DNA of 64,000 bases from the IMG/VR virus record IMGVR_UViG_3300025087_000053, positions 1 to 64,000 of that record, one strand, 5' to 3'. How positions within the stretch are numbered: position 1 is the stretch's first letter; each line of letters starts with the position of its first letter. Under the pieces are notes generated by a model. The model had not been told where the DNA came from, did no database searches, and worked only from the letters and a program-made list of their open reading frames with translations. The position numbers and the translations under genes are program-made. Positions 3,642 through 29,305 of the stretch are shown one piece after another. Source of the DNA: a virus.

Positions 3642-3712
3642 TTTCTTTTTTCTTTCTTGCTCGGAAGTTATCTCTCTTTATACAAGAGTTTTCCCCAAGA
3701 GTCAATAAAAAA

Positions 3713-4783: not shown

Positions 4784-5002
4784 TTACTTCTCCCTCTTCT
4801 CTCCCAAAACCCCAACAATCATCTTGTAAAGCTCTTCGGTTTCTTCCTTACTACACAGACTCATGTACATCTGAATAATGTGAAAAGTTATCTCGTCGGA
4901 GGCTTTTTGATTTGTTATAGAAAGATTGGAAACAATCTGATGCGCTTTCGCAAGCAAACAAATAATTTCCTTTAGCTTTTTGATTTCTTCAATCAGTAAC
5001 AT
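4784..5002 (-). CDS. hypothetical protein
   Basis: 72 aa, tightly packed in an operon. Confidence 0.55.
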   Translation of the reverse strand: MLLIEEIKKLKEIICLLAKAHQIVSNLSITNQKASDEITFHIIQMYMSLCSKEETEELYKMIVGVLGEKREK

Positions 5003-5003
5003 T

Positions 5004-5240
5004 CTAATCCCTCCCGTTGTCCACAGACAAGTATGTCTCTACGAGGCTCAAACAATCATTGTTACAGTTTCTCAAAACAGAAATGATTCTTTCTGCCGGA
5101 AGTGAACTGTTCTTTCTCGCAAAATCAATTGCATTTGCCGCTTGTCGAAGGGATTCTACAATCGCCTTTGCATAGTTGTTCTTTACGTTTTCAACAATCT
5201 TCTTTTTTTGAGAATCTCTGTCAAAGTTCGTGAAGTCCAT
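5004..5240 (-). CDS. hypothetical protein
   Basis: 78 aa; GGAGG SD. Confidence 0.6.
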   Translation of the reverse strand: MDFTNFDRDSQKKKIVENVKNNYAKAIVESLRQAANAIDFARKNSSLPAERIISVLRNCNNDCLSLVETYLSVDNGRD

Positions 5241-5241
5241 C

Positions 5242-5469
5242 TCACCCCTCCTTTGCCGTCAGACGATAGCTCGACGGAAGGCGACGAAAACATCCGTTGA
5301 TTGCGTCAACCAGAACTCCATTGGCAAGCGAGAGAGCCGCACCACTGATCGCCCCACCTCGACGCACAAGCCCGAAAATCTCCGACCCCGGAGGATTGAT
5401 TGTCGAAAGAGTCTTGGCGATCTTCATCGAGGTCTTGTCGACGTGGATCGAAACCGTTGTCGCTAGCAT
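5242..5469 (-). CDS. hypothetical protein (true start downstream of the CRISPR array)
   Basis: MLATTVSIHV start follows the purine-rich leader typical of early genes here; the longer ORF call just runs through the repeats. Confidence 0.55.
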   Translation of the reverse strand: MLATTVSIHVDKTSMKIAKTLSTINPPGSEIFGLVRRGGAISGAALSLANGVLVDAINGCFRRLPSSYRLTAKEG

Positions 5470-5500
5470 TTCTTTTTTCTCTCTTGTTCGGAAGTTTCGG

Positions 5501-5772
5501 GGTCCATCCCCACACACGCAGGGGAGACACGTTGACGCTATTAGGCTGCACATTAGAAGAAGGTCCATCCCCGCACACGCGGGGGAGACTTTCAGGATCT
5601 TTTTTCTGTGCTCTTGGCAGAAGGTCCATCCCCGCACACGCGGGGGAGACGTAGGACGGGGGAAAAATGTTGGCACCGGGGCTGGTCCATCCCCGCACAC
5701 GCGGGGGAGACATCTTTTTTTAGCCTTCGACCACGCTTTTGCCAGGTCCATCCCCGCACACGCGGGGGAGAC
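5501..5772 (-). CRISPR. CRISPR array, 5 x 28-nt repeats (GTCTCCCCCGCGTGTGCGGGGATGGACC) and 4 x 33-nt spacers, type I-E-like repeat
   Basis: repeats at 5501, 5562, 5623, 5684 and 5745 (61-bp period); CCCCGC-GTGT-GCGGGG hairpin; the 5501 copy has 2 substitutions and is the trailer end. Confidence 0.97.
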
Positions 5773-6065
5773 TCTATGACATCGAAGTCATACCCAACTG
5801 TGGCTCCCCTGCCACATGCGGGAATAGCATATCCGTCAAAGAATTTATTCTTTGCTATACATGCTTCTGTAGGCGGAAACTCCGCACGGCTTTCCGAGAG
5901 TATTGCCATACCAGTCTTATTTTATTAAGACTTTCTTGGGCCACTTTCTCAGATTAGGGCGTGGGACCACGCCCAGAATACAAAACTGTATTCTATTCCC
6001 AAATTTATTCTTTATTCAGTTTTTCAAAGAACTTTATCTTGTGGCTATTGCCGCCCCAAGAATGA
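5773..6065 (-). ncRNA. putative tracrRNA/scaffold RNA for Cas12f
   Basis: anti-repeat at 5802-5828 plus several hairpins (TATGAC/GTCATA, GCGGA/TCCGC, AGTCTTA/TAAGACT, GGGCGTG/CACGCCC, AGAATACA/TGTATTCT) between the cas gene and the array. Confidence 0.7.
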
Positions 6066-6070
6066 CATAA

Positions 6071-7498
6071 CTATAGCACATCTTCTATGCTTTTGTCAAC
6101 AGCTTTTTCTTCTTCTCGTCTTGTTGAAGACTCTTCCGTCTCCGACGTACCAGTCTCCTCACATTCATACTCATCATCCTTTAATCCACGGTAAGGAAGT
6201 TTGTTTTTTATGCAATATTCCTTAATCATATTTTCTATGTCTTTTGTAGCAATGTTTTTTGCTGCATTATAATCTGCGTTTGCAGTATATCCACAAGAAA
6301 CACAAACAAATTTTTCTTGTGTCTTGCGATTATCTTCGTGGATCGTTCCACACTCTGAACACCTTTGAGACGTGTATTGAGGATTTATCTTCACAACCTT
6401 AATTCCCACAATCTTTGCCTTATATTCTATCTTTGTTTGAAGATCAAAATATCTCCAATTTTTAAGAAACTTTGGCTTTTTCCCGGCAGTAATGCCAGAA
6501 AGGTTTTCCATTTGAATGGTTTTAGCTCCTTCTTTTATTGCTCGGTTAATCAATGCTTTAGACATTTTGTGGTTCATTGTATCTGCCCAACTACTCTCCC
6601 TGTTTTCGATTGAAAGCGTTGGCTCTAGGGCTTTCTTTCGTCCTCTTCCTTTGCGCTCTTCATAGTTTTTATATCCTCTTTGAATACTTCTTCTTCTTTC
6701 CCGAAATTGGGTTTGATTTTTTCGTATTAAAGAAGCATCCATTGAAAAGTCCCGCTTTTCGGAATTAGAAAAAGCAATAGTCCACGGATGCGCTATCCCC
6801 AAATCAATTCCCATAATAACATTTGAGTCTAGCTCTGTGACAACCGGAGGGTGTTTGCAAGACACAAGAAAGAAAATCTTATTATCTTTTATCTGCAAAT
6901 AGCACTCTCCGGTTCCAAGCCTCCCTTCCCACATACTCTTCATTTCTTTTTTGAGAAAAGCAGGAAGCTTTGAACTTTTTAAAACAAAGCTAATTTTTCT
7001 TTCCTCTTTGGGAACACTCTTTGACCCTGTTGTAAGCCTAACACAAAATTCTTTCTCCTCGGACAAAAAGAGTTCATAACTGCCCTTGGGGAAGGGAACT
7101 GGGCTTGTTCTTTTAAAGAACAAAACAGACTCTTCTTTTTTTACTAAAGTTGCAAACCTGTGTCTCACATAAAAGTCTCCAACTTGTATTTTAAGTCCTT
7201 CCATAATCGGAGTAGAAATCAAGAGATATTTTGGTTTAACCAGAGTATGATAGGTTTTAGACTTAAGACACCCCTCCTTTGAAGATTTATCATACTTGCC
7301 GTTTTTAAATTCAAAAGACGAGAGCAGCTTGTTTTCTATTTCTAAATTCTTTCTATCTGCTAAATAATATTCTACAGCATAAGTGTTTTTTATGTCTGAA
7401 CATTGTTCTGACAGTAAACGAATCTTTTTCCCAAACTCCTGCCAAGAAAGTCCAATCGGCTTATGAATTTGAAATTTCTTAATTGTAACGTTTCCCAT
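6071..7498 (-). CDS. cas12f: CRISPR-associated type V-F nuclease Cas12f (Cas14/C2c10-like)
   Basis: 475 aa; RuvC-I IMGIDLG, RuvC-II IQMENL, CSECG/CVSCG zinc ribbon, RuvC-III NADYNAAKNI; N-terminus (KPIGLSWQEFG) and NWRYFDLQTKIEYKA...PQYTSQRCSECG resemble AsCas12f1 as I recall it; adjacent to the array. Confidence 0.88.
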   Translation of the reverse strand: MGNVTIKKFQIHKPIGLSWQEFGKKIRLLSEQCSDIKNTYAVEYYLADRKNLEIENKLLSSFEFKNGKYDKSSKEGCLKSKTYHTLVKPKYLLISTPIMEGLKIQVGDFYVRHRFATLVKKEESVLFFKRTSPVPFPKGSYELFLSEEKEFCVRLTTGSKSVPKEERKISFVLKSSKLPAFLKKEMKSMWEGRLGTGECYLQIKDNKIFFLVSCKHPPVVTELDSNVIMGIDLGIAHPWTIAFSNSEKRDFSMDASLIRKNQTQFRERRRSIQRGYKNYEERKGRGRKKALEPTLSIENRESSWADTMNHKMSKALINRAIKEGAKTIQMENLSGITAGKKPKFLKNWRYFDLQTKIEYKAKIVGIKVVKINPQYTSQRCSECGTIHEDNRKTQEKFVCVSCGYTANADYNAAKNIATKDIENMIKEYCIKNKLPYRGLKDDEYECEETGTSETEESSTRREEEKAVDKSIEDVL

Positions 7499-7540
7499 TT
7501 TTTATATCCTTTCACGATTTCTTCTAGCTTAAAGTTTCAA

Positions 7541-7846
7541 TTAAAAAATCTTCAGAAGAAGCCAAGCAATAGACAGAAAGCTTGCCCCAACAAGAAATGG
7601 ACACCAAAGCGGAGCCGTCTCTGCAAGAAGTTCTTCTTCCTTGTGCTTCTTATATGGCTTTTGCCGAATAATATAAACAATCATCAGAATTCCAGCCGTT
7701 GTATAAAAATTCAAAACAAAGGGAAAGAAAAAAGAAAGATTATACCAATCCCAAATACACATGATCACCCATGAATTCCAAGCCACCTGAAGCACAGACA
7801 CGAAAAGGGCAATAGCCGCAGCCACAATATAATAAATCGCTTTCAT
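7541..7846 (-). CDS. membrane protein
   Basis: several hydrophobic segments from MKAIYYIVAAA. Confidence 0.6.
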   Translation of the reverse strand: MKAIYYIVAAAIALFVSVLQVAWNSWVIMCIWDWYNLSFFFPFVLNFYTTAGILMIVYIIRQKPYKKHKEEELLAETAPLWCPFLVGASFLSIAWLLLKIF

Positions 7847-7847
7847 T

Positions 7848-8072
7848 TTACTTTTCCTCTGCCTTGAGAACAACCCCAGGATAAGATGCTTCCATCGAAC
7901 CATCAAAAAACCCGCTGGAGTACGCTGAATGCAGAATGCTCAACAACAAATTCCTTTCCTCTTCTTTGAAAGAAAGATGCGAAACCATCTTAAAAAAAAC
8001 ATTTGCCTGGTCGTTAATCCTCTCACTAAGCAGCAAAGCCTTCTTTTCGTAGTCTGTGGTTATGGTGTCCAT
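7848..8072 (-). CDS. hypothetical protein
   Basis: 74 aa; GAGG SD. Confidence 0.55.
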   Translation of the reverse strand: MDTITTDYEKKALLLSERINDQANVFFKMVSHLSFKEEERNLLLSILHSAYSSGFFDGSMEASYPGVVLKAEEK

Positions 8073-8242
8073 TTTCTTTTTACCTCTTGTCTGAAAGTTT
8101 CCCCATTATAATCGGCGGGAACAAAACTCAAGCGAAAAGAACAACAAGAACAAAACAAAAAACAAGAAAGCCTGTTGCATAATCGAGAGTCTTTTCGGAA
8201 TTATATCCGTTGTGATAATACGACATTTTGTTTTCTTTCTGA

Positions 8243-8572
8243 TTACGTTGTGGACCAAACTCTACCAAAAATCTTCTTTCCGTATCTCTCTTCCATTCTC
8301 AAGAGAGCGCGCTTCATATTCTCGACGCCCTTTGGGTTTGCACTGTGGATGTTGACAGTCGGAGGATTCCAGTCTCGATGAAAAAACATCCACTCGTCCA
8401 TCCAGTTGATAACATCCATACCCGTCTTAAGTCCATCGCCCAAATCATGATCAAAAGAAACCTCTGAAACGTTTTGGAGGGTTCTAAGAAGATAAATCAT
8501 GTCCTCTGCTGTCTTCACCGGCTCCCAGCCAGAAGGACATTGCCTTTCGTCATCTAAAAAAAGCTTCTTCAT
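8243..8572 (-). CDS. cyclic-phosphate-processing receiver-domain protein
   Basis: LFLDDER, SFDHDLG, TGMD and IHSANPxG motifs. Confidence 0.75.
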   Translation of the reverse strand: MKKLFLDDERQCPSGWEPVKTAEDMIYLLRTLQNVSEVSFDHDLGDGLKTGMDVINWMDEWMFFHRDWNPPTVNIHSANPKGVENMKRALLRMEERYGKKIFGRVWSTT

Positions 8573-8697
8573 TTTGTTTTCTTTCTTTTGTTGGGAAGAT
8601 ACTTAAAACTTAAGAGGCTGTGGGATCTTCGGCGACTACCACAATCACGCTGTTCGTAAACGTAGGCTGTAAAAATACAGCCGCCCCTTAAACTCAA

Positions 8698-15225: not shown

Positions 15226-16616
15226 TCCCGTTCGAGATTTAAACCACGAAATCATCAGCCGACATGAGTTTAAGCTCTCTCCTCTTATTAAAAATAATGA
15301 ATTTACAAAAAAGTCAACATATTTCACTTCGTGTGCTATATTTATAATGTGTCGAAACGTCTTTCTACAACTTCTGAAAAAAGCCTCCCTATAACTATCC
15401 TCAGTCAACGTATTCGACTCGTTCCAAATAACATCCAAACAACCTTTTTCGAACGTTGTGCTGGTGCATCTCGCTTCGTCTACAACTGGGGATTGGACCG
15501 TTGGAAAACTCAATACGAAGCCGAAGGAAAGCCCTCTTGGATCAGTCTTAACACCGAGCTGAATGCCTGCAAAAACACCGAATTTCCTTGGATGGCAAAA
15601 TTGCCGTGGGCTGTTGCTGCAACGGCGTTGTCCAACCTCGGCAATGCTTTCTCCAACTTCTTTCGCCGTATCAAATCTGGCCAAAAGCCCGGCTATCCCC
15701 GCTTCAAGTCGAAGAAACAAAGCAAAATGTCCTTCGCCGTTGAAGGTCGAGCCCTTCGCTTTGACGGCCGAAGAGTTAAGATTCCCAAGCTTGGTTGGGT
15801 CCGCACTCGACAAGAGATAAGATTTCCTGGTAAAATCCTGTCCGCTCACTTTACGAAACATGCCGGTCATTGGTACGTCTCGGTCCAAATTCAAGTCTCC
15901 GACTCCTGGTCCTATCCCCATCGCTGCGAAACCCAAGAAGCGGTTGGAGTGGATCTCGGGCTCCGAGACCTTGCCGTGCTTTCTACGGGAGAACGGGTCG
16001 AGGCTCCACGCATTCTGCGTGCTCATGAAACCAGACTGCGACGATTCAACAAGGAAATGTCTCGTCGCGTCATAGGAGGAAGAAATTGGCAGAAGACTAA
16101 AACGAAGCTTGGACGGCTGCATGAACGGATTTCCAACATCCGCAAAGACGTAACGCATAAGCTTACCGCTCGGCTGGTCCGAGACTTTCGTCGGATTGGA
16201 ATCGAGGACTTGAACGTCAAGGGGATGATGGCAAATCATCATCTTGCCAAGTCGATTGCGGATGCTGCCTTGTCGGAAATCAGGCGTCAGCTTATGTATA
16301 AAGCTCCGCTTGCCGGCAGTGAAATCATTGTTGCCGACCGCTGGTTCCCTTCTTCCAAGCTGTGTTCCGACTGTGGAACAAGACGAGAAGGACCGTTGCC
16401 TTTGTCCATCCGAGAATGGGTTTGTGAGGTTTGTGGGGTTGTCCACGACCGAGACATCAACGCAGCCATTAATCTTAGAACCGCCGCCCTGGCGGGGATA
16501 GCCTGCTGTCAAGAAAGCTCTGGTTCTGGCCCTACGGCCAGAACGAAACTTCCTCATGGGCAGGAATTGAGCAACTGTGTTAACTAATGGGTTCATGGTT
16601 TAAGTCTCAAATGGGA
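15226..16616 (+). mobile_element. TnpB-only IS element, copy A (IS607/IS1341-like, no transposase)
   Basis: left end TCCCGTTCGAGATTTAAACC and right end GGTTTAAGTCTCAAATGGGA are inverted copies; homologous to copies B-E. Confidence 0.85.
15349..16587 (+). CDS. tnpB: RNA-guided endonuclease TnpB
   Basis: N-terminal HTH (RFVYNWGL), VGVDLG, IGIEDL, CSDC/CEVC, HDRDINAAINL; probable GTG start at 15349. Confidence 0.93.
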   Translation: MSKRLSTTSEKSLPITILSQRIRLVPNNIQTTFFERCAGASRFVYNWGLDRWKTQYEAEGKPSWISLNTELNACKNTEFPWMAKLPWAVAATALSNLGNAFSNFFRRIKSGQKPGYPRFKSKKQSKMSFAVEGRALRFDGRRVKIPKLGWVRTRQEIRFPGKILSAHFTKHAGHWYVSVQIQVSDSWSYPHRCETQEAVGVDLGLRDLAVLSTGERVEAPRILRAHETRLRRFNKEMSRRVIGGRNWQKTKTKLGRLHERISNIRKDVTHKLTARLVRDFRRIGIEDLNVKGMMANHHLAKSIADAALSEIRRQLMYKAPLAGSEIIVADRWFPSSKLCSDCGTRREGPLPLSIREWVCEVCGVVHDRDINAAINLRTAALAGIACCQESSGSGPTARTKLPHGQELSNCVN

Positions 16617-18763: not shown

Positions 18764-19057
18764 AATCTTTGAGACTTAACCACGACACGAACCCGTTAGT
18801 TAACATGGGGTTAAGCCTTCTCCTTCTGTTAAAAAGAACGAATTTACAAAAAAGGAGTAAATTCCACTTCGTATGCTCTATTTATAGTATGTCGAAGTTT
18901 TATACTACGACGATAAAAAGAACCGCCGCCCTGGCGGGGATAGCCTGCTGTCAAGAAAGCTCTGGTTCTGGCCTTACGGCCAGAACGAAACTTTTTCATG
19001 GGCAGGAATCGAGCAGCCGTATTAACTAAGGAGTTCATGGTTTAAGTCTCGAAGGGG
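18764..19057 (+). mobile_element. non-autonomous TnpB derivative, copy C (promoter plus omegaRNA scaffold)
   Basis: both ends of A/B retained with ~1.1 kb of tnpB deleted; in-frame 46-aa remnant ORF 18889..19029. Confidence 0.88.
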
Positions 19058-28606: not shown

Positions 28607-29305
28607 TCACTTAGTCTTGGAAGATTTGCGAGACTTCGCTTCTTTGACGGCAGAACGAAGCTTTGAAACCACTCTGCGATAAACCTCGTTAATAACCTCT
28701 TCGGAAACCTCTCCTTCAGTAACAGGAGCGTCTTCTTCGGTCACAACTTCGGCGCCAGCAGCAGCAGGAGGTGCTTCGGCTTCTTTAATCTTGCCCTTTT
28801 GAACCATTTTGCCTTTGCCAAGCTTTTCTTGCATCACAGGAGGCTCTTCCTCTTCTTCCGCTTCGGGAGCCGGGGGCAGGCCACCTTCGCCACCTTCGGG
28901 AGCCGGGGGAGGCATCTCGCCGCCTTCGCCACCTTCCATTTCGCCACCTGCGCCACCGTCTACTTGGACATTAACATTCGCTCCAGACTTAGCAGAAATA
29001 ACGTCTGCGATGTCTTGGATTAGTTCTGCTACGGCCTCTTCGGGCAGACCAGCAAGAGCGCTGTCTTCTACAGGAGCGCCTTCCTCGGGCGGCATATCGG
29101 AGGGCATGTCACCTGCGGGAGCGGGCGGAGGAGGCTCGGCACCGGCATCAACTGGGGGCATATCGCCACCTTCGGGCGCGCCTTCCTCGTCCTCTTCGTC
29201 CTCTTCTTTCAGACGAGCCAGAAAGCCTTCAGTCAGTTTCTCTTGACCAGCCAGACGCATGAATCTAATAGTTTCATCTCTTTCCAAAAGTAGCTTTTTA
29301 GCCAT
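28607..29305 (-). CDS. acidic Pro/Gly/Glu-rich protein, possibly virion/scaffold-associated
   Basis: low-complexity core; ACTATTTA late-type motif upstream (29355-29363). Confidence 0.6.
   Translation of the reverse strand: MAKKLLLERDETIRFMRLAGQEKLTEGFLARLKEEDEEDEEGAPEGGDMPPVDAGAEPPPPAPAGDMPSDMPPEEGAPVEDSALAGLPEEAVAELIQDIADVISAKSGANVNVQVDGGAGGEMEGGEGGEMPPPAPEGGEGGLPPAPEAEEEEEPPVMQEKLGKGKMVQKGKIKEAEAPPAAAGAEVVTEEDAPVTEGEVSEEVINEVYRRVVSKLRSAVKEAKSRKSSKTK

Follow-up and report, generated by a model that had tools for sequence, protein, structure and literature searches.

On the minus strand of a 75.5-kb virus record in IMG/VR (IMGVR_UViG_3300025087_000053, completeness estimated at 38%), a cas12f1 gene at 7498–6071 is followed by 298 nt of non-coding DNA and then by a CRISPR array, with all features of the locus lying on this one strand. 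The stretch analysed here, called the window below, comprises 64,000 nt, positions 1–64,000 of the record. We consider it highly likely that the locus is the gene for the trans-activating CRISPR RNA (tracrRNA) of a phage-borne type V-F1 Cas12f1 with intact nuclease residues, and that this tracrRNA is joined to the CRISPR array in one transcription unit. The features of the locus are collected in Table 1.

Table 1. Positions of the cas12f1 gene, the tracrRNA elements and the CRISPR array in the window
Feature	Position	Strand	Description	Basis
cas12f1 gene	6071–7498	minus	475 amino acids; RuvC D232, E331, D409 and zinc-finger C380, C383, C399, C402 intact	
Promoter-like site	6070–6099	minus	TTGACA–18 nt–TATAGT with upstream TG, 11/12 consensus; overlaps the cas12f stop; predicted start ~6063	
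Three 5′ hairpins	5975–6061	minus	6061–6037, 6032–6007, 5994–5975; outside the covariance-model hit	RNAfold centroid
Conserved tracrRNA core	5826–5974	minus	stem 1, 5974–5957; stem 2, 5953–5893; hairpin, 5885–5873; long hairpin, 5865–5827	
Anti-repeat	5802–5828	minus	pairs with repeat nt 1/3–25/26 at −35.7 kcal/mol; directly after the last scaffold stem	
Linker	5773–5801	minus	29 nt; hairpin with 6-bp stem and 6-nt loop at 5792–5775; no U-run after the hairpin	sequence, fold
CRISPR array	5501–5772	minus	five 28-nt repeats and four 33-nt spacers, exact period 61	repeat search
Repeats 1–5	5772–5745, 5711–5684, 5650–5623, 5589–5562, 5528–5501	minus	28 nt each	

The Cas12f1 protein and its RNA scaffold

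Judged from its sequence, the gene product is a full-length Cas12f1 with intact nuclease residues. It has the length (400–550 amino acids), the RuvC D-E-D residues and the C-terminal zinc finger of a Cas12f1 effector, and both these acidic residues and the four zinc-finger cysteines fall in invariant columns of the alignment. The PADLOC Cas12f model PDLC01699 is matched from end to end (E 9e-96) and the Pfam family Cas12f1-like_TNB with an E value of 1e-23. The best solved relatives are the structures of AsCas12f1 (PDB 7wju, 8j12), with an E value of 1e-60 over residues 4–427, whereas the TnpB of ISDra2 reaches only 6e-6. The nearest database proteins are ~35% identical to the window protein, a scan of viral contigs for exact peptides gave distant matches only, and one identical protein fragment was found (P0002). 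At the nucleotide level, a blastn search of phage records aligned 6% of the gene.

The known system to which the locus can best be compared is that of AsCas12f1 (PDB 7WJU, 8J12; PMC8548392; PMC11246509), in which a homologous full-length protein with the same catalytic and zinc-finger residues is encoded in the same order of cas12f, tracrRNA and array on one strand. The window locus differs from it in being phage-borne, and the identity between the two proteins is ~35%.

Behind the gene, a 364-nt region folds at −129 kcal/mol (z = −6.4 against shuffled sequences) into seven hairpins, in agreement with the five or more that had been noticed upstream of the linker in an earlier, sequence-only reading of this DNA. 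A covariance model, named R1, was built from the tracrRNA regions of 16 related Cas12f1 loci, with AsCas12f1 included and the window excluded; 17 of the 22 base pairs in its alignment show compensatory changes, and stems 1, 2 and 4 are supported. The sole significant hit of R1 in the 64-kb window is the minus-strand segment 5974–5826 (27.5 bits, E 6.6e-6), which covers the full model (model positions 1–148) and ends where the proposed anti-repeat starts. These 150 nt share homology with the tracrRNA scaffolds of AsCas12f1 and related loci, and a long structured tracrRNA of the family type lies between cas12f and the array. For covariation of this exact RNA, no close relatives were found. Rfam gave no family match at 5000–8500, and the array alone returned chance-level hits only.

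The reference locus of AsCas12f1 in our set, L170, encodes a 422-residue open reading frame (ORF) that matches PDB 7wju over its full length (E 1e-287) and is the identical protein. In this locus, the anti-repeat stands directly after the last scaffold stem (stem 4), and the distance from the stop codon to the end of the anti-repeat is ~160 nt, which fits the published tracrRNA length of 169 nt (PMC8548392). The scaffolds of L170 and the window are homologous in stems 1 and 2 by the covariance-model hit, and are also alike by eye, since in both a long stem 2 comes after stem 1, its opening sequence being ...GAGAA(A)GUG and its closing one ...ACUCUCGG. What the window has in addition is the set of three 5′ hairpins, which are absent from the family model and make the intergenic region ~100 nt longer than the AsCas12f1 scaffold; these extra hairpins take up ~90 nt from the stop codon to stem 1. 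They may extend the tracrRNA at its 5′ side, space it from the gene, or act as a transcriptional element.

The anti-repeat and its cognate repeat

The element that follows the last scaffold stem had been read from the sequence as an anti-repeat, pairing with repeat positions ~3–25 by way of G:U wobbles, one bulge and one mismatch, and our calculations agree with this description. RNAduplex forms 21 pairs between 5828–5802 and the repeat, and counting by hand gives 23 (five of them G:U), with one bulged G, one A·C mismatch and one terminal C·U mismatch, so that 21–23 of the 28 repeat bases are paired. Also as stated earlier, the mismatch becomes a true pair in the oldest repeat, the one that ends at 5501. 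The U at position 9 of this last repeat repairs the A·C mismatch, and the duplex is therefore stronger with the last repeat (−38.5 kcal/mol) than with repeats 1–4 (−35.7 kcal/mol). An anti-repeat after the last stem that engages nearly the whole repeat in a long duplex with an internal bulge is found in AsCas12f1 as well, and the ~28 nt involved are as reported for that system.

Between cas12f and the array, no site comes near 5828–5802 as a partner for the repeat (the second-best reaches −18.3 kcal/mol). With the array itself set aside, it ranks first in the entire window too, here narrowly (other sites, −35.2 and −34.3 kcal/mol). Three GC-rich segments, at 16475–16508 and 18917–18946 (minus strand) and at 28885–28918 (plus strand), pair with the repeat at −34 to −35 kcal/mol. 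A single element present in two copies accounts for the first two, and the near-equal pairing of all three was taken as chance pairing of GC-rich hairpins.

Complementarity alone is, however, weak evidence at this locus because the repeat is a near full-length palindrome, and an anti-repeat and a decayed direct repeat are not told apart by it. The sequence-only reading had itself named the latter as a case that would overturn it. On such a view, 5828–5802 would be nothing more than a same-sense repeat in decay, and the 29-nt linker would be a spacer that has become shorter; the two would have arrived with the array and have no anti-repeat function, leaving the scaffold to pair elsewhere or to do without a working partner. 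We think this improbable, although it has points in its favour. The repeat pairs with a same-sense copy of itself (−36.2 kcal/mol) as well as it does with the candidate (−35.7 kcal/mol), and 5.6% of simulated same-sense copies, decayed to the observed divergence, attain the duplex energy of the candidate. In the DNA alignment, the candidate scores 17 against the repeat in the same sense and 13 in the antisense orientation, and its start-to-start distance to repeat 1 is 56 nt, near the 61-nt period of the array.

The remaining evidence points the other way. The element sits exactly at the anti-repeat position of the family, directly after the last scaffold stem, and nothing else between the gene and the array pairs with the repeat to a comparable degree. 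By our count, four indel events would be needed to derive it from the repeat in the same sense and one in the antisense orientation, and its changes in the non-palindromic flanks give Watson–Crick pairs that are impossible for the repeat's own bases (A/U opposite U23/A22). Decayed repeats are normally found at the far end of an array, where this array already has one, the repeat at 5528–5501 with two base changes relative to the others. Furthermore, when the segment after stem 4 of 33 loci was paired with all 33 repeats, the cognate repeat came first in 12 loci and within the first three in 22, and for the window it ranked first of 33 (z = −4.4). For this comparison the segments were anchored on the covariance-model hit, which replaced a plain best-duplex scan of the relatives that was too noisy (many z values near 0).

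Pairing by itself would leave a decayed copy in play, but position, homology and cognate specificity together indicate that 5828–5802 is a real anti-repeat, complementary to its cognate repeat at the 3′ end of the tracrRNA, whatever its origin. Origin and function are in any case separate matters, and the element could descend from a repeat copy yet serve as an anti-repeat. A second short anti-repeat, formed by GGUCC in the loop of stem 1 (5968–5964) with the last five bases of the repeat, was considered but not adopted, since the anti-repeat parts of AsCas12f1 are contiguous and the main anti-repeat of the window already covers repeat nt 18–25.

Transcription and layout of the joined unit

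The anti-repeat and repeat 1 are separated by the 29-nt linker with its own hairpin, just as the sequence-only reading had it. A scan of the minus strand from 6070 to 5500 found no promoter-like or terminator-like site between the predicted promoter and the end of the array. Because of this, and because the linker hairpin has no U-run behind it, the array is probably without a promoter of its own and transcribed behind the scaffold. The tracrRNA would then probably be made together with the array, and the locus probably gives a joined precursor of tracrRNA and CRISPR RNA (crRNA).

Such a unit could work as follows. Transcription would begin at the promoter-like site over the cas12f stop, or by readthrough from cas12f, and would run unbroken through the scaffold, the anti-repeat, the linker and the array. 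The anti-repeat would open a repeat hairpin and pair with it, kinetically first with repeat 1 of the same RNA, which would yield a single-guide-like precursor carrying spacer 1, and repeats 2–5 would be served in trans by the scaffold copies of other transcripts. With a single anti-repeat for four spacers, action in trans is required as well, together with some processing. By analogy with AsCas12f1, a Cas12f dimer would bind the scaffold, host RNases would trim the RNA, and the complex would cut spacer-matching DNA beside a T-rich protospacer-adjacent motif (PAM). The spacer-1 unit could stay joined or be cut in the linker, and either form should work, like engineered single guides.

The earlier proposal that one transcript folds scaffold, anti-repeat, repeat and spacer in cis stands in part. 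These elements are contiguous, no terminator was found between them, and for a transcript ending after spacer 1 the in-cis duplex of the anti-repeat with repeat 1 is the minimum free energy (MFE) fold. Its probability is, however, only 0.41–0.55, against 0.38–0.52 for two separate hairpins, and the in-cis duplex does not survive in the fold of the full array.

Several points, added to the self-complementarity of the repeat discussed above, weigh against a joined and working tracrRNA–array unit. The in-cis duplex has to compete with the stable hairpin of the repeat itself (−16.1 kcal/mol), and in the full-array fold the anti-repeat pairs with the last, variant repeat (P 0.8–1.0) while the in-cis pairing with repeat 1 falls to 0. 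The R1 alignment is weak in its 3′ third, with inserts replacing the stem-4 region. In the one well-studied case, the ribonucleoprotein holds separate crRNA and tracrRNA (PMC8548392). Finally, no protospacer was found: the array and its spacers had no match in the phage collection, viral contigs contained no exact match to the 5′ 23 nt of either spacer 1 or spacer 2, and no spacer had a near match elsewhere in the window.

The relatives show that the Cas12f1 family most commonly, and ordinarily, has its anti-repeat near repeat 1. R1 finds homologous scaffolds at 60 places in the related loci searched. Among 39 loci, the distance from the end of stem 4 to repeat 1 is at most 36 nt in ~20, which leaves room for the anti-repeat plus 0–10 nt; it is 50–82 nt in seven cases including the window (55 nt), and at least 99 nt in about ten cases including AsCas12f1 (156 nt). 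The gap between the anti-repeat and repeat 1 is shorter than the 29 nt of the window in about half of these loci, whereas in AsCas12f1 it is ~134 nt, enough for a leader of its own. In a quick protein tree, the long-gap state clusters in one subclade with AsCas12f1, and loci with the close state are scattered among the remaining branches. The MFE folds of the close-layout loci show the same in-cis hairpin of anti-repeat and repeat 1.

Among the closest in design are Clostridia and phage Cas12f1 loci (L008, L010–L014, L017, L024, L092 and others), in which scaffold, anti-repeat and repeat 1 are likewise contiguous, no room is left for a separate array promoter, the in-cis hairpin is part of the MFE fold, and several of the arrays are phage-borne mini-arrays. 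Unlike the window, with its 29-nt linker, own linker hairpin and different repeat family, they have linkers of ~0–10 nt whose end is a U-rich, conserved GC(A) tail, and repeats of 32 nt that start with GTTGCAA and recur with periods of 65–70. The searchable literature places the tracrRNA simply between the gene and the array (PMC8548392, PMC10090079). For the prediction of guide RNAs, it matters that only a few bases often lie between the end of a Cas12f tracrRNA and repeat 1, and that the array is often without its own promoter.

This family-wide picture bears on the boldest part of the sequence-only reading, which likened the RNA to a TnpB omegaRNA with its 3′ end replaced by a CRISPR unit. 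In its strong form, the locus would make an obligate natural single guide and be an evolutionary intermediate between the TnpB omegaRNA and a split tracrRNA/crRNA. Much of what has been described would suit such a reading, namely the contiguity from scaffold to spacer 1 without a terminator found between, the in-cis MFE fold of the short transcript, a close layout that is widespread in the family and extends to its early branches, and scaffolds fused to a truncated repeat in related phages. It is also accepted in the literature that the omegaRNA was split to a dual guide and re-collapsed to single guides in dCas12f (bioRxiv 10.1101/2025.06.10.658865). Like the omegaRNA of IS200/IS605 TnpB, the RNA of the window is a structured RNA from the 3′ end of a nuclease gene with the guide on its 3′ side.

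Nevertheless, we judge an intermediate of this kind to be unlikely. In the protein tree, which was a quick tree search only, the window protein lies on a long branch inside the Cas12f1 clade, away from the TnpB outgroup. It has the N-terminal half of Cas12f1, and its scores are far under the cut-offs of the TnpB family models in NCBIfam (61 bits against 425 for IS200_TnpB, 41 bits against 350 for IS607_TnpB). Its scaffold is a standard Cas12f1 tracrRNA, and what follows this scaffold is an anti-repeat, a linker and a five-repeat array; the guides are CRISPR spacers behind a repeat, and not flanking DNA directly after the scaffold without a repeat, as in TnpB. One anti-repeat for four spacers makes trans action necessary, about half of the relatives have a shorter linker and the window is thus not an extreme case, and the I-E-like array described below is probably a recent acquisition and not an ancestral state. 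The intermediate proposed earlier is therefore not upheld, since a full-length Cas12f1 nested in its clade, an ordinary scaffold and the commonest layout account for the locus. In this Cas12f1 clade an anti-repeat near repeat 1, and with it a joined precursor, is the rule and not a rare evolutionary intermediate, which is sobering for the original claim.

Natural single guides have been described for dCas12f homologs, and the collapse of a dual guide to a single one is discussed in the same work (bioRxiv 10.1101/2025.06.10.658865). The chimeric single guides of dCas12f-sigma-E reported there resemble the precursor proposed here in carrying scaffold and guide on one RNA for a Cas12f relative. 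That system has no tracrRNA-like species, has guides of 14–16 nt, and uses a catalytically dead protein that acts in transcription, whereas the window has intact nuclease residues, a canonical tracrRNA scaffold and a multi-spacer array.

Among the relatives we also observed loci with more than one scaffold. A second tracrRNA copy in L103 (4516–4720) and in L107 (4189–4393), both from related phages, has its anti-repeat linked through a 5-nt loop to a truncated repeat, with ~10 nt and a terminator hairpin behind it, which makes it a fully fused single-guide-like unit without an array. Two or three scaffold copies per locus are present in L020, L095, L092, L094 and L023. Every copy in L020 and L095 is followed by a short array of its own, and in L092, L094 and L023 no multi-repeat array was detected behind the extra copies. 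Tandem modules of scaffold and mini-array occur in several phage loci. The segment 5437–5544 of L092 resembles a shortened scaffold (stem 4 and anti-repeat) fused to the 3′ end of a repeat.

Type I-E-like repeats behind a Cas12f1 scaffold

The unusual feature of the locus is thus not its layout, but the pairing of a canonical Cas12f1 tracrRNA with I-E-like repeats. The repeat, with a 6–7-bp GC stem, a tetraloop and an AUGGACC handle, is type I-E-like in both sequence and geometry, and the array has the form of the I-E type, in which a repeat of 28–29 nt combines a GC stem and tetraloop with a 3′ handle of the form AU..ACC, spacers measure 32–33 nt (here exactly 33 nt in all four) and the period is 61. 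A 21-nt core of the repeat was found exactly in metagenome arrays that also have a period of 61, L176 (39 copies) and L173. The repeat of L176 is 29 nt long, and its printed copies have 23 bases in common with the window repeat. By our count, this 23-nt core differs from the I-E core of E. coli and Salmonella, an enterobacterial sequence that is confirmed in the literature, only at two bases of the handle and in the loop. In L174, L175 and L177 the core has single exact matches; these were set aside, as they lie in or beside ORFs and not in arrays.

The array is not typical of type V-F. Related Cas12f1 arrays have repeats of 29–38 nt and variable periods, mostly 64–76, and the 60-odd arrays beside related cas12f genes are all unlike that of the window. 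In AsCas12f1, for example, the repeat has 29 nt, is weakly structured and recurs with periods of 64–69, whereas the 28-nt window repeat is a strong palindrome with a period of 61. One V-F repeat, the 32-nt repeat of L149, has a 13-nt block in common with the window repeat, which may reflect convergence or kinship between the V-F and I-E-like repeat families.

Compared with a type I-E array, the window has a Cas12f tracrRNA, with a 3′ end complementary to the repeat, in place of the AT-rich leader. The sequences suggest that the array was captured and the anti-repeat re-matched to the I-E-like repeat. A more specific account, which we offer tentatively, is that a nuclease-active phage Cas12f1 had its anti-repeat re-matched to a captured I-E array, and that spacers cut to the 33-nt ruler of a host I-E Cas1–Cas2 are read by a type V effector and possibly by Cascade. 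The anti-repeat itself may have come from a same-sense copy of the palindromic I-E repeat, and such an origin, if true, would be a one-step route by which a tracrRNA switches repeat families.

Alternatively, the array could serve mainly or only a host type I-E system (Cas6e, Cascade and host Cas1–Cas2 spacers), with the adjacency of cas12f being incidental, or, in a non-exclusive version, both systems could read it. The repeat length, stem, tetraloop position, 3′ handle, 33-nt spacers and 61-nt period all fit I-E, the enterobacterial core is as close as described above, and the repeats have 75% G+C in a genome of 40%. In the 75.5-kb record no Pfam match to Cas6e (PF08798) or Cas1 (PF01867) was found, so such functions would have to be the host's. 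However, an incidental juxtaposition would not predict an anti-repeat at the correct place of the tracrRNA that matches the window repeat and no other. Neither the 401 sampled Clostridia genomes nor the viral contigs searched yielded the repeat core. The long arrays with this core stand on short contigs without cas genes, so that their I-E assignment is one from sequence and geometry. Service to a host I-E system appears to us an outside chance.

If functional, the arrangement would mean that repeats from a different CRISPR type can become the new target of a tracrRNA, and that a phage could use an array format extendable by the adaptation machinery of its host. It would also bear on the movement of arrays between CRISPR types, and would provide a compact nuclease with a short, highly structured repeat.

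We also looked at the DNA on the far side of the array. The 3′ flank of the last repeat (5469–5496) belongs to a repeated intergenic element with copies at 3642–3669 (93% identical) and 8573–8600; this may simply be an upstream region common to neighbouring genes. If the array is read by a type V effector, the last repeat would yield a fifth guide from the flank at 5500–5468, and a guide read from there would nearly match the phage's own genome.

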